This document shows positions 1 to 3,482 of a stretch of DNA of 5,068 nucleotides, piece after piece. The position numbers and the translations under genes were made by a program. Position 1 is the first letter of the stretch. Each line of letters opens with the position of its first letter. This DNA comes from a virus (taxonomy: Duplodnaviria; Heunggongvirae; Uroviricota; Caudoviricetes): the IMG/VR virus record IMGVR_UViG_2671180254_000011; one strand, written 5' to 3'. The notes under the pieces were generated by a model. That model made no database searches. It had not been told where the DNA came from and saw only the letters and a list, made by a program, of their open reading frames with translations.

Positions 1-71
1 AGGAAACAACATGTTGGGTGGAGCGGACAATCCAAATGGCGAATTACCGTCTTATATCACTGGCGCTGACA

Positions 72-300
72 ATATCAATGATTTTCTGGTGCGTACCGGG
101 TTGAGAAGCGGTGTAAGTGAACTGCAGTTGCCATGTTTTACGGCAGTGAGAGCAGAGATAGCGCTGATGTCCGGCAGTGCCTTTTGCCGTTACGTACCAC
201 CCCGTCAGTAGCTGAACAGGAGGGACAGCTGATAGAAACAGAAGCCACTGGAGCACCTCAAAAACACCATCATACACTAAATCAGTAAGTTGGCAGCATC
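72..300 (-). mobile_element. insA: IS1 left-end fragment, truncated (about the first 229 bp of IS1: terminal inverted repeat plus 5' part of insA), oriented on the minus strand
   Basis: Reverse complement of 278-300 is ggtgatgctgccaacttactgat, the IS1 left inverted repeat as I recall it. Reverse complement of 72-300 follows the IS1 left end through the insA region; the ORF-track fragment [37 protein letters not shown] matches InsA. Similarity to IS1 stops abruptly below position 72. There appears to be a 1-nt insertion relative to the IS1 I recall near 165-190, shifting the insA N-terminus out of frame. Confidence 0.85.
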
Positions 301-410
301 ACCGAAGTGGTAAAGAAGATAATAAAGAATAATATTTAGGGTTATAGGTCTTAGCCCATTTTAAATGGAAGGCAGACATGCAGCCATGCATACTTCGCAT
401 GGCAACATAA

Positions 411-752
411 TTATTTAGACAAACTATCTAATTTTTGCGTCGCTTTTTGTGTTAGGTCGCTGTAACTGATAAACCCTACGTTAGCACCTACAATTAACAC
501 TAAGAACACTAAGCTGCATATGGATAGAGTGGCAGATTTATGCTTATGGAAAACAAAATATGCTACTATTGCACTTAATATGAAGGAAATGAATAGAAAT
601 ATAGATGTTGATGTTTTTAGATATTTTTCAGGAAATAATGGGTGAGCAATAATGTATACAAGATTAAGTAGTATATAAATTGCTACCGGAATGAAAATCA
701 TGCTCCAGTGTGTATCTTTTTTGGGAGGGATTGGCTGCAAATAATCAGACAC
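411..752 (-). CDS. hypothetical small integral membrane protein (113 aa, three predicted transmembrane segments); function unknown
   Basis: 114-codon open frame in very AT-rich DNA, where stop codons are frequent by chance. Three hydrophobic stretches: WSMIFIPVAIYILLNLVYIIAHPLF, SIFLFISFILSAIVAYFVF, LSICSLVFLVLIVGANVGFI. Same strand as, and 82 bp downstream of, the 835-1212 ORF. Start is ambiguous: GTG at 752 or in-frame ATG at 701, neither with a strong Shine-Dalgarno. Confidence 0.55.
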   Translation of the reverse strand: MSDYLQPIPPKKDTHWSMIFIPVAIYILLNLVYIIAHPLFPEKYLKTSTSIFLFISFILSAIVAYFVFHKHKSATLSICSLVFLVLIVGANVGFISYSDLTQKATQKLDSLSK

Positions 753-834
753 CGTTTTTCCATCAGTTTCAAGAAGAATTACTAGATCTCTTACTTCACC
801 ACTGACTTGAGTGCATCCTTAGTAGTAATGTTAA

Positions 835-1212
835 TCATTTTTTCCCTCCAAATACGATGCCCTCTACGTCTTTGGAAGCTTTTTGTGATGACCACTCCTC
901 TGAATCAGGTGATTTAATTAAAAATATTGTATCTCCATCAAAAATCGTATTTGTTCCGTAAAAATTCACATTTGATAGATCACCACCAAAAACCCTCTGC
1001 CCACTCGAGGTAATTGCCTCACCTAATTTAGTAAAATTACCAGCAATAGATGATTTTCTTTTTCCACTTCTATTCAAAGTGGCTTTAATTACACCACCAC
1101 CATCCTTAGAGTTAAATAATTGAATGTCCACTCCAGCAGTTGGTTGTATATATTTTGAAAGCTCTTTCTTGAACTTGTTAATATATTTATCTTTGTTTTC
1201 TTTGTTGGTCAT
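835..1212 (-). CDS. hypothetical soluble protein (125 aa), lysine-rich N-terminus, glycine-rich core; function unknown
   Basis: 126-codon open frame in AT-rich DNA. No hydrophobic signal peptide or transmembrane segment. First gene of an apparent two-gene minus-strand unit. I do not recognise the sequence (MTNKENKDKYINKFKKELSKY...GIVFGGKK). Confidence 0.55.
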   Translation of the reverse strand: MTNKENKDKYINKFKKELSKYIQPTAGVDIQLFNSKDGGGVIKATLNRSGKRKSSIAGNFTKLGEAITSSGQRVFGGDLSNVNFYGTNTIFDGDTIFLIKSPDSEEWSSQKASKDVEGIVFGGKK

Positions 1213-1299
1213 TGGTTAGATCCATAGTTCTGGCTGTGATTAGGTGAAAGTATACAAGGTTTTTAAAGCGAAGATCACTGTTTTGGCTTCAAGATAGTT

Positions 1300-1328
1300 T
1301 TGATTTATCGTAATCAATCCGCCATAAT
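1300..1328 (+). promoter_or_regulatory. candidate sigma70 promoter for the plus-strand nin-region chain
   Basis: TTGATT (1300-1305), 17-nt spacer, CATAAT (1323-1328). Sits at the AT-rich/backbone composition boundary, about 55 nt upstream of the small ORF and about 150 nt upstream of ybcN. Confidence 0.4.
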
Positions 1329-1365
1329 CCTCTCATCGGAGCCTGAACAACTCCGGTGACTTCTG

Positions 1366-1389
1366 CGCATTTAAGGGGACTTAAATGCG
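1366..1389 (+). promoter_or_regulatory. perfect 10-bp inverted repeat with 4-nt loop (cgcatttaag-ggga-cttaaatgcg) overlapping the ribosome-binding site and ATG of the small ORF
   Basis: Arms 1366-1375 and 1380-1389 are exact reverse complements. The loop GGGA is part of the AAGGGGA Shine-Dalgarno-like element, and the ATG at 1385-1387 lies in the 3' arm. No U-tract follows on either strand, so it is not a typical intrinsic terminator. Confidence 0.35.
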
Positions 1390-1480
1390 ACCACAATCTG
1401 AACTCATCACCTTGTCACAGATGCAGAAATGCACCTGCGATTTTCTGCATTCTGCGGTTTCCGTTAGGGAGGCCGTATGA
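1385..1480 (+). CDS. small ORF (31 aa, MRPQSELITLSQMQKCTCDFLHSAVSVREAV), positionally equivalent to the small ylcH-type gene preceding ybcN in DLP12-like prophages
   Basis: ATG at 1385 preceded by AAGGGGA with 5-nt spacing. Its stop TGA (1478-1480) overlaps the ybcN ATG (1477-1479) as ATGA, suggesting translational coupling. Below the ORF-track length cutoff; identity not verified. Confidence 0.3.
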   Translation: MRPQSELITLSQMQKCTCDFLHSAVSVREAV

Positions 1481-1932
1481 CTCTGCCAGTAGACGGCATC
1501 AAACTCCATCGCGGTAACTTCGCGGCCATCGGCCAGCAGATTCAGCCATTGCTGGATGCCGGGCAATGCTTACGCCTGCAGGTTAAGCCGTGGCGCGAGA
1601 AGCGCAGCCTGTCGCAGAACGCGCTCAGCCACATGTGGTACACGGAGATCAGCGAATATCTCATCGCCCGCGGCAAGACCTTCGCTACGCCTGAGTGGGT
1701 CAAAGACGCGATGAAGCACACCTATCTCGGCTACGAAAGCAAAGACCGTGTAGATGTCGTGTCCGGCGAGGTCACCACCGTCCAATCCCTCCGCCATACG
1801 TCAGAGCTGGAAACCGGCGAGATGTACATCTTCCTGTGCAAAGTCGAAGCCTGGGCGATGAATATCGGCTGCCACCTGACAATTCCGCAGAGCTGTGAAT
1901 ACCAGCAGCTGCGCGATAAGCAGGAGGCGTAA
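1477..1932 (+). CDS. ybcN: NinB/Orf-family recombination mediator (DLP12 YbcN-like, 151 aa)
   Basis: 151-aa ORF with AGGGAGG Shine-Dalgarno 4 nt upstream. The segment RSLSQNALSHMWYTEI resembles the conserved RSL-QN region of lambda NinB/Orf. Length and gene order (before ninE, ybcO, rusA) match the DLP12 nin region as I recall it. Confidence 0.8.
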   Translation: MTLPVDGIKLHRGNFAAIGQQIQPLLDAGQCLRLQVKPWREKRSLSQNALSHMWYTEISEYLIARGKTFATPEWVKDAMKHTYLGYESKDRVDVVSGEVTTVQSLRHTSELETGEMYIFLCKVEAWAMNIGCHLTIPQSCEYQQLRDKQEA

Positions 1933-3319: not shown

Positions 3320-3355
3320 CTAAAAATTATTAAAAATGGGGCGTTGCAACGCCCC
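3320..3355 (-). terminator. candidate rho-independent terminator for minus-strand (porin) transcripts
   Basis: GC-rich perfect palindrome ggggcgttgcaacgcccc (3338-3355). On the minus strand it is followed by the T-rich tract atttttaataattttta; on the plus strand it is followed by A-rich sequence, so it looks unidirectional. Confidence 0.5.
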
Positions 3356-3443
3356 CAAAAATAAAGGGTAATATATAACAGAAGGTTTATATAGTTAGAA
3401 GCAAGGTTGTGCTCCTAAAGGAAGTGGCTTGAGGGAGCCACTT

Positions 3444-3482
3444 ATATGTTGGGGAGGCAAAGCCTCCCGCAACATATCTTTT
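3444..3482 (+). terminator. candidate rho-independent terminator for plus-strand transcripts leaving the quuD region (tR'-like position)
   Basis: Arms atatgttggggaggc (3444-3458) and gcctcccgcaacatat (3462-3477) pair with one bulged C around an aaa loop, followed by cttttagt. Lies 11 bp from the porin stop codon. Confidence 0.45.

Follow-up and report, generated by a model that had tools for sequence, protein, structure and literature searches.

A conserved structured 5' leader in front of the nin block of lambdoid prophages as a candidate gate on nin-gene translation

The 5,068-nucleotide stretch of viral DNA analysed here (IMG/VR record IMGVR_UViG_2671180254_000011, Caudoviricetes; hereafter the window) belongs to a lambdoid prophage of the DLP12/phage-82 type. 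Directly in front of ybcN, the first gene of an interlinked nin chain (ninE, ybcO, rusA, ylcG, quuD), it carries a compact segment comprising a promoter, four hairpins (H1-H4) and a small leader open reading frame (ORF) homologous to ylcH of Escherichia coli K-12 (Table 1). We propose that this segment, from 1299 to about 1480, is probably a conserved cis-regulatory leader, which gates translation of the nin block (ybcN/ninB-ninE-ybcO-rusA-ylcG-Q) by way of the leader ORF. Phage and prophage copies of the segment are together termed unique leaders and number 90, 98 or 99 depending on the analysis; L-numbers denote the loci or viral contigs compared. Two of the hairpins, H1 and H4, had been overlooked in an initial annotation of the locus.

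Table 1. Features of the leader and of its surroundings in the window
Feature	Position	Strand	Details
IS1 element end	1 to ~302		inserted 20 nucleotides before the stop of replication gene P
AT-rich two-gene cassette	411-1212	-	
-35 hexamer TTGATT	1300-1305	+	conservation of the module begins at 1299/1300
Dyad TTGATT-N6-AATCAA	1300-1317		overlaps the -35 hexamer and the spacer
-10 hexamer CATAAT	1323-1328	+	A, T, A, A, T fully or almost fully conserved in 90 unique leaders
H1	1332-1360	+	inner 7 bp 1335-1341/1351-1357; loop CCTGAACAA at 1342-1350; up to 10 bp in most homologues
Transcription start, predicted	1335	+	A, 7 nucleotides after the -10 hexamer; from the K-12 orthologue
Linker GACTTCTGCGC	1358-1368	+	invariant in 90 unique leaders
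H2	1366-1389	+	10-bp stem, GGGA (GNRA-type) loop
H2 allele A			GCGC-ATTTAAG-GGGA-CTTAAAT-GCG; start codon ATG; -13.3 kcal/mol
H2 allele B			GCGC-TAAACG-GGGA-CGTTTA(T)-GCGC; start codon ATG; -14.4 kcal/mol
H2 allele C			GCGC-TTTGAG-GGGA-CTCAAA-GTGC; start codon GTG; -17.3 kcal/mol
Leader ORF, ylcH/orf33 homologue	1385-1480	+	31 residues; TGA stop overlaps the ybcN ATG (ATGA, 1477-1480)
H3	1420-1451	+	within ylcH; -13.4 kcal/mol; contains the second inverted repeat
H4	1453-1477	+	buries the ybcN Shine-Dalgarno GGAGG (1468-1472) and the A of the ybcN ATG
ybcN	1477-1932	+	NinB/Orf-family recombination mediator; Pfam NinB, phrog_72, genome annotations
ninE, ybcO (part N-masked), rusA, ylcG, quuD, then porin gene	3' of ybcN		porin gene on the minus strand

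The 5' edge of the leader is very sharp. The compositional boundary that the initial annotation placed at about 1300 was recovered (GC 0.29-0.37 before it and 0.46-0.63 after it) and coincides with a homology boundary at 1299/1300. Of 5,426 complete E. coli genomes, 2,778 contain a match to a query of 288 nucleotides taken from around the site, and in nearly all of them the match starts at query position 86-88, that is window 1298-1300; likewise, the information per position in the 90 unique leaders stays at about 0.05 bits as far as 1298 and has reached 2.0 bits at 1300. The DNA on the 5' side is variable, being ybcM in K-12, ybcK in O157:H7, the AT-rich cassette in the window and, in other cases, HEPN genes, an alpha/beta hydrolase gene, a YajG-like lipoprotein gene or, in phages HK639 and CobraSix, DNA polymerase III theta-like genes. 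Because conservation starts at 1299/1300 whatever lies upstream, the promoter is, as judged from these sequence comparisons, part of the downstream module and not of the AT-rich cassette. The suggestion that insertion of the cassette had created or replaced the promoter is thus contradicted, as the -35 hexamer opens a conserved module found behind many unrelated cargoes, and the proposed comparison with DLP12-like prophages lacking the cassette found the promoter there too. On the 3' side the leader is joined either to ybcN or to lambda-type ninB, the mosaic junctions being sharp at both edges; these edges mark where lambdoid prophages exchange cargo genes. The leader thereby precedes recombination genes (ybcN/ninB, rusA) and the late antiterminator gene Q in about half of the complete E. 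coli genomes, its carriers including DLP12 of K-12 and prophages of O157:H7.

Certain viral contigs (L035, L039, L103 and L110) have two leader copies 1.9-2.4 kb apart around cargo on the same strand. In L035 the copies are at 10533-10669 and 12927-13073 on the minus strand, and in L039 at 7825-7973 and 9758-9835; the cargo of such contigs includes a BRO/P22AR-like protein of 201 residues and a HEPN-like protein of 138 residues with a partner of 133 residues. The placing of two copies around cargo implies that the leader also serves as a portable promoter and 5' untranslated region (UTR) and as a recombination patch. A scan of 596 Gb of contigs with the 16-mer GAACAACTCCGGTGAC, a pattern too short for this purpose, returned nearly exclusively chance matches in unrelated phyla and four usable enterobacterial loci.

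The promoter itself, TTGATT-17-CATAAT at 1300-1328, which the initial annotation had described as near-consensus, agrees with the consensus at 9 of 12 positions. Taken alone the motif is weak evidence, because a promoter scan reported three promoter-like sites in 500 nucleotides against 0.7 expected, and its status as a promoter therefore rests on comparative and experimental evidence. In the 90 unique leaders both hexamers are almost invariant, variation being seen at positions 1307-1311, 1318-1320 and 1329, and the layout is kept in 95 of 99 unique leaders. In the four exceptions the upstream DNA is unrelated or altered, and yet a promoter-like sequence is present at an equal distance from H1. 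These sequences are TTCGCA-18-TACAAT in ENT1, the only exception called by the promoter scan; TGTTATAAT in L017, which by eye reads as an extended -10 and where the scan found no site; and, likewise read by eye, TTGAAA-17-CAATAT in the second copy of L035 and TTGAGA-17-CATAAT in L053. Furthermore, a primary transcription start site (TSS) has been mapped in the K-12 orthologue by terminator exonuclease (TEX)-enriched sequencing of 5' rapid amplification of cDNA ends (5'-RACE) products from mid-exponential MG1655 (Kim et al. 2012, PMC3415461). This site, at 571542 on the + strand of U00096.2, is supported by 247 reads and was assigned to ylcH with a 5' UTR of 49 nucleotides, the upstream sequence ending in ...TTGATTTTGGGAAATCAACACGGCATAATTATGTCA (Table S1 of that study). 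The final A of TTGATTTTGGGAAATCAACACGGCATAATTATGTCA is the seventh base after CATAAT and matches window 1335, which agrees with the prediction of a start near 1335 made from the window. TTGATT-17-CATAAT is thus supported as a genuine sigma-70 promoter.

The dyad overlapping the -35 hexamer is conserved in its own right. Its spacer half AATCAA (1312-1317) is as strongly conserved as the hexamers in the 90 unique leaders, and in phi80 and HK225 the sequence reads TTGATA-N6-TATCAA, with the symmetry retained. Conservation of the spacer half together with this symmetry-keeping change suggests that a dimeric DNA-binding regulator may recognise the dyad. Among known host factors, FNR and IHF were considered: the spacing of the half-sites is unlike the N4 of FNR, and the dyad departs from the IHF consensus.

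As a whole, the 166-nucleotide leader folds at -57.4 kcal/mol (z = -3.5). A covariance model built from six copies with allele A of H2, including those of the window, phi80, ENT1 and CobraSix, was used to align 98 copies, and this alignment served for all pair counts, as the alignment produced by MAFFT set the H2 alleles out of register. In the four-helix structure 96.5% of the alignment cells are paired; shuffles gave 88.5%, and none of 500 was as high as the observed alignment. Double-sided changes are seen at 17 pairs. Displacing the 3' partners by 1-3 columns reduces the paired fraction to 33-43%. The frequency of U.G pairs identifies the + strand as the folding strand. A search of Rfam with E <= 1 recovered no covariance-model match over the whole window. 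We also considered the view that the leader is conserved only as a homology patch of phage modules, or by recent spread, and has no regulatory role. Such a view would account for the sharp mosaic junctions at both edges, for the joining of varied cargoes on the 5' side and of ybcN or lambda-type ninB on the 3' side, and for the loci with two copies around cargo. However, it leaves unexplained the compensatory changes in three of the four hairpins, and it is further opposed by the promoter-like replacements at a fixed distance from H1 and by the start of transcription in K-12 at the predicted base; hence we give it hardly any credence.

The first hairpin, H1, has the form GTCA(C/T)CGGAG - CCTGAACAA - CTCCGGTGAC in most homologues. 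Four independent versions of the stem share a common loop, the other stems being CTGCCAG(C)GG/CCCTGGCAG in phi80 and HK225, GCCGCCGG/CCGGCGGT in ENT1 and ATCGGAG/CTTCGAT in CobraSix. Double-sided changes affect 4 of its 10 pairs, and most copies have U.G at 1336/1356, a combination able to pair on the + strand alone; the segment containing H1 folds at -8.0 kcal/mol. H1 begins at +1 or 2-3 nucleotides before it. Since the inner 7-bp stem has the mapped +1 at its base, the transcript would be without a free 5' tail, and all four stem versions are alike in having no single-stranded 5' tail. By comparison, boxB is a 5-bp stem with a GNRA-like pentaloop, preceded by boxA; H1, with a stem of 7-10 bp and a loop of 9 nucleotides, and with no boxA-like CGCTCTT, does not have the form of an N-utilisation site.

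Term-seq data from MG1655 place + strand RNA 3' ends at 572349 and 572350 (Adams et al. 2021, PMC7815308, supplementary files 1 and 3). These correspond to +31/+32, or window 1365/1366, in ...GGTGACTTCTG, 5-6 nucleotides past the 10-bp stem of H1; they are present in two conditions with low scores and fit termination or exonuclease trimming alike. H1 could accordingly be a promoter-proximal attenuator, a stable 5' cap surviving decay, or both. A possible if doubtful alternative, itself compatible with gating through the leader ORF, is that control is mainly transcriptional, with H1 as an attenuator or terminator stopping most transcripts at +31, a factor that reads the H1 loop or the dyad allowing read-through, and H2 and H4 providing fine-tuning. 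Recurrence of the 3' ends in both conditions, downstream of a well-used TSS, would be in line with this, as would the invariance of the H1 loop over a covarying stem, the conservation of the dyad in the promoter spacer, the position of H1, which is that of the lambda/P22 tR2 terminator directly 5' of ninB, and the poor expression of rusA in K-12, where it needs promoter-supplying insertions for adequate expression (PMC4118853). Nevertheless, the sequences after H1 (UUCUGCGC) and H2 (ACCACAAU) both lack the U-tract of an intrinsic terminator, and a terminator scan flagged neither hairpin. Moreover, the low-scoring 3' ends are possibly exonuclease stops at a stable hairpin, and no candidate antiterminator or repressor was identified.

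The palindrome that forms H2 is as perfect as first described, CGCATTTAAG (1366-1375) and CTTAAATGCG (1380-1389) being 100% complementary over 10 bp. Its relation to the translation signals also stands: GGGGA at 1375-1379 comprises one stem base and the four-nucleotide loop GGGA, the Shine-Dalgarno (SD) element of ylcH lies in the 5' arm and loop, and the ATG at 1385-1387, which opens the 31-codon ORF, lies in the 3' arm. RNA folding, proposed as a check on the hairpin, gave -13.3 kcal/mol with z = -4.7 (0 of 200 shuffles as stable), and the ylcH AUG has a predicted unpaired probability of 0.001 (0.001-0.003 across 30-50 C). Three alleles of H2 were found among the 99 unique leaders, and these are alike in stem length, loop and position of the start codon in the 3' arm; the GGGA loop is present in all but one unique leader, which has GGAA. 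Double-sided changes occur in 6 of the 10 pairs, with 99.3% of the alignment cells paired. That three arm sequences preserve one structure implies that H2 acts as folded RNA rather than as an operator, and the three structure-preserving alleles, along with G.U pairs, support the proposal of the initial annotation that the palindrome occludes initiation as RNA. H2 was rejected as an RNA thermometer, which would call for an SD/AUG helix that is weak or mismatched and melts between 30 and 42 C: its uninterrupted stem of 10 bp retains -11.9 kcal/mol at 42 C and even -4.3 at 70 C, a stability much too high for such a role, and the AUG stays paired at 30-50 C.

The same annotation had offered a dimeric-repressor operator in the DNA as the other explanation of this palindrome, and we examined it in the form of a P22 C2-type roadblock just past the promoter. 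In this regard, ATTTAAG-GGGA-CTTAAAT (1369-1386) matches the P22 C2 operator pattern ATTTAAGNNNNCTTAAAT with 0 mismatches, which for a perfect match of 14 bases is very unlikely by chance, and the only matches to the pattern within P22 are its annotated C2 operators, OL and OR, each deviating by 1-2 mismatches. The inner sequence of H2 is closer to the C2 consensus than any natural P22 operator. However, the two further alleles have other arm sequences with the same stem, loop and start-codon position, and one H2 allele stays paired only by virtue of a G.U pair. Cognate sites were also not found in the immunity region: similar palindromes are absent from the cI-cro region of a prophage of the window type (strain A7), and no similar sites occur elsewhere in 120 loci. 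The frequency of the motif upstream is alike in allele-A and allele-B loci, with no enrichment, and allele A is common to phages of differing immunity, namely phi80, HK639 and CobraSix. The match may be a coincidence or a cross-immunity site, and that H2 is primarily an operator appears highly improbable.

The start codon enclosed in H2 belongs to ylcH, the orf33 of the phage 82 annotation, which K-12 and other genomes list as a hypothetical protein. In 93 of 98 unique leaders the ORF runs uninterrupted for 31-34 codons, and its terminal ATGA or GTGA overlaps the start of the following gene. Its N-terminal 12 residues are unrelated between alleles, its C-terminal third exists in three or four unrelated versions, and the core MQKCTC is invariant; polymorphic sites are distributed evenly over the three codon positions (11/15/12 and 18/18/19). 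This even distribution and the unrelated termini make it appear, so far as sequence variation can tell, that ylcH matters through being translated and not through its peptide. The central block TCACAGATGCAGAAATGCACCTGCG, which forms the 5' arm of H3, is near-invariant even at synonymous sites, and this implies a constraint at the nucleotide level. It could still be argued that ylcH encodes a functional small protein with the hairpins incidental to coding, given that the ORF is open in about 95% of the unique leaders, that an SD-like element is well spaced from a start codon in all three alleles and that the core is invariant. Against this, the polymorphism shows no third-position excess, both termini differ as described, invariance of the core extends to synonymous sites, and searches of Pfam and PHROG yielded no family match; a functional peptide is therefore very unlikely.

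Within ylcH the initial annotation had noted a second, weaker inverted repeat. It is present and, at 9 bp, one base longer than described, pairing ATGCAGAAA (1421-1429) with TTTCTGCAT (1442-1450) in H3. It is conserved, but its changes are one-sided only (G-C to G.U) and none is compensatory, so that support for H3 is weaker, although 94.9% of its alignment cells are paired. The last hairpin, H4, is found with every type of 3' end, whether ybcN or lambda-type ninB, in differing sequences that fold at -10 to -20 kcal/mol, and shows double-sided changes in 7 of 10 pairs. In the window the 33-nucleotide segment holding it (1450-1482) folds at -16.1 kcal/mol, and the ybcN SD has a predicted unpaired probability of 0.004, which is stable at 30-50 C. 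The leader ORF accordingly combines an SD and start of its own, a stop-start overlap with the next gene and a downstream SD sequestered inside the ORF, as is expected of leader-ORF coupling.

The anatomy and conservation of the leader, the covariation of H1, H2 and H4, and the TSS and 3' ends of the K-12 orthologue are directly supported, and it is from these that we infer translational gating, a role for H1 and the possible involvement of a trans-acting ligand. In the mechanism we favour, the sigma-70 promoter TTGATT-17-CATAAT would start transcription at A1335, and the leader RNA would fold into four successive hairpins, the first of which may act as an attenuator near the promoter, as a 5' cap that remains after decay, or as both. 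H2 would lock the SD and AUG of ylcH in a very stable GNRA-capped stem, making initiation on ylcH rare, and H4 would lock the SD and start codon of ybcN. A ribosome reading ylcH would melt H3 and H4 and free the ybcN start, such that ybcN is translated only after ylcH has been read, and the overlapping stops and starts would relay the gating down the nin chain. This model fits the need of rusA for promoter-supplying insertions in K-12 (PMC4118853); if true, gated translation of the nin chain would help to account for rusA being silent there until it is activated by an insertion sequence. As a compact and well-delimited element, the leader is readily testable by means of reporters.

Several points weigh against the gating proposal. 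Every experimental result used here was obtained on the K-12 orthologue, which is about 79% identical over the leader stretch. A Cappable-seq set (PMC4782308) is without the site of Kim et al. at 571542 and has a weak + strand start at 571565 (U00096.2), that is +24. The ribosome-profiling supplement of Stringer et al. 2021, the sole one searched, has no ylcH entry. A perfect hairpin of -13 kcal/mol should by its predicted stability nearly abolish initiation, and no opener has been identified. The covariation of H2 amounts to three alleles and hence to few evolutionary events, and the alignment used for the pair counts, having been fitted to the model, leans towards the modelled structure. Lastly, H1 is without a U-tract, and the 3' ends could be products of decay rather than of termination. 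As regards the +24 start, it is equivalent to window 1358, inside the 3' arm of H1, and inspection by eye found no convincing sigma-70 or alternative-sigma hexamers for it.

An extended form of the proposal would make the leader a two-level switch for the nin-Q block, in which a promoter with the dyad as operator and an H1 loop (CCUGAACAA) read by a factor are combined with the GNRA-capped hairpin gating the ORF. In this form the leader would additionally be a portable expression unit for cargo, as is suggested by loci in which two leader copies flank HEPN-type cargo. Such a switch would, if true, time the recombination functions and the production of the Q antiterminator; we consider it unlikely in this full form.

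The holding of SD and AUG in a stem is known from textbook cases such as the MS2 replicase operator hairpin. Like such couplings through sequestered ribosome-binding sites, the leader has an SD and start in a stable stem, a downstream SD inside the upstream ORF and a stop-start overlap; unlike the MS2-type hairpin, it has no known protein ligand, and we propose the coupling from its layout. The 5' UTR of ompA exemplifies an mRNA-stabilising 5'-terminal stem-loop. H1 resembles stabilisers of the ompA type in starting at or just before the mapped +1, and is unlike simple stabilisers in its invariant loop of 9 nucleotides and in the 3' ends at +31. The ninA/tR2 region of lambda and P22 occupies the same map position, immediately 5' of ninB. 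In P22 the annotated ninA (26 residues; L259, 6674-6754) has an internal tR2 hairpin and overlaps the ninB start as ATGA, and lambda (L013, 1066-1148) has the same ninA sequence, tR2 hairpin and ATGA at the ninB start. However, this region has no sequence similarity to the leader, the covariance model has no match in lambda, and tR2 is a canonical terminator with a U-tract, unlike the leader with its promoter and hairpins lacking U-tracts. ninA is thus a positional analogue of ylcH that is unrelated in sequence.

Parts of the element have been recorded before. The 1996 entry for phage 82 (GenBank X92588; Mahdi et al. 1996, J Mol Biol 257:561) contains the same element and marks, at homologous positions, a putative -35, a putative -10, a ribosome-binding site and orf33, which is ylcH, as well as a 29-nucleotide 'possible regulator-binding site' that is H1. 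Its marked features are putative only, and it carries no annotation of H2, H4, covariation or coupling; the window differs from phage 82 in having H2 allele A rather than B and in the 3' end of ylcH. In the DLP12 ylcH-ybcN leader of K-12, ylcH is at the same place. The phi80 record (JX871397) annotates both 10-bp arms of H2, identical in sequence to those of the window, as IR4 directly 5' of the ybcN homologue and gives no function for it; the H1 stem of phi80 differs and its -35 is TTGATA. What was already known therefore consists of the putative sites in X92588, IR4 of phi80 and uncommented TSS and 3' ends in genome-wide tables of 2012 and 2021, and the literature searched yielded no paper discussing ylcH or this leader. 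The sharp module boundary, the covariation of H1, H2 and H4, the assignment of the folding strand, the evidence that the peptide is unconstrained and the coupling model are new. In kind the element is an ordinary, if neatly built, structured 5' leader with a coupled upstream ORF.

With regard to the rest of the window, its closest match is in E. coli CV839-06, with 100% identity, and strain A7 has the same gene arrangement without IS1. The IS1 end (window 1-303) adjoins the last 20 nucleotides of P, which is disrupted in this prophage copy; the copy is therefore probably defective. In the AT-rich cassette, a 1-nucleotide insertion at 814-815 relative to strain A7 frameshifts a membrane-protein gene of 142 codons (phrog_16940) near codon 8, and the partner gene (835-1212, 125 residues) belongs to phrog_18061. 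Both proteins are without a PADLOC match and without a Pfam match above the curated threshold. Downstream of ybcN, a run of N at 2159-2356 covers the end of ybcO together with the beginning of rusA. Farther on, in the interval separating quuD from the convergent porin gene, there are G+C-rich perfect palindromes at 3335-3362 (GGGGCGTTGCAACGCCCC, with runs of A and T on the flanks) and a second pair at 3420-3480. These look like a bidirectional terminator, and a minus-strand 3' end is listed in the Term-seq data at their K-12 equivalent.

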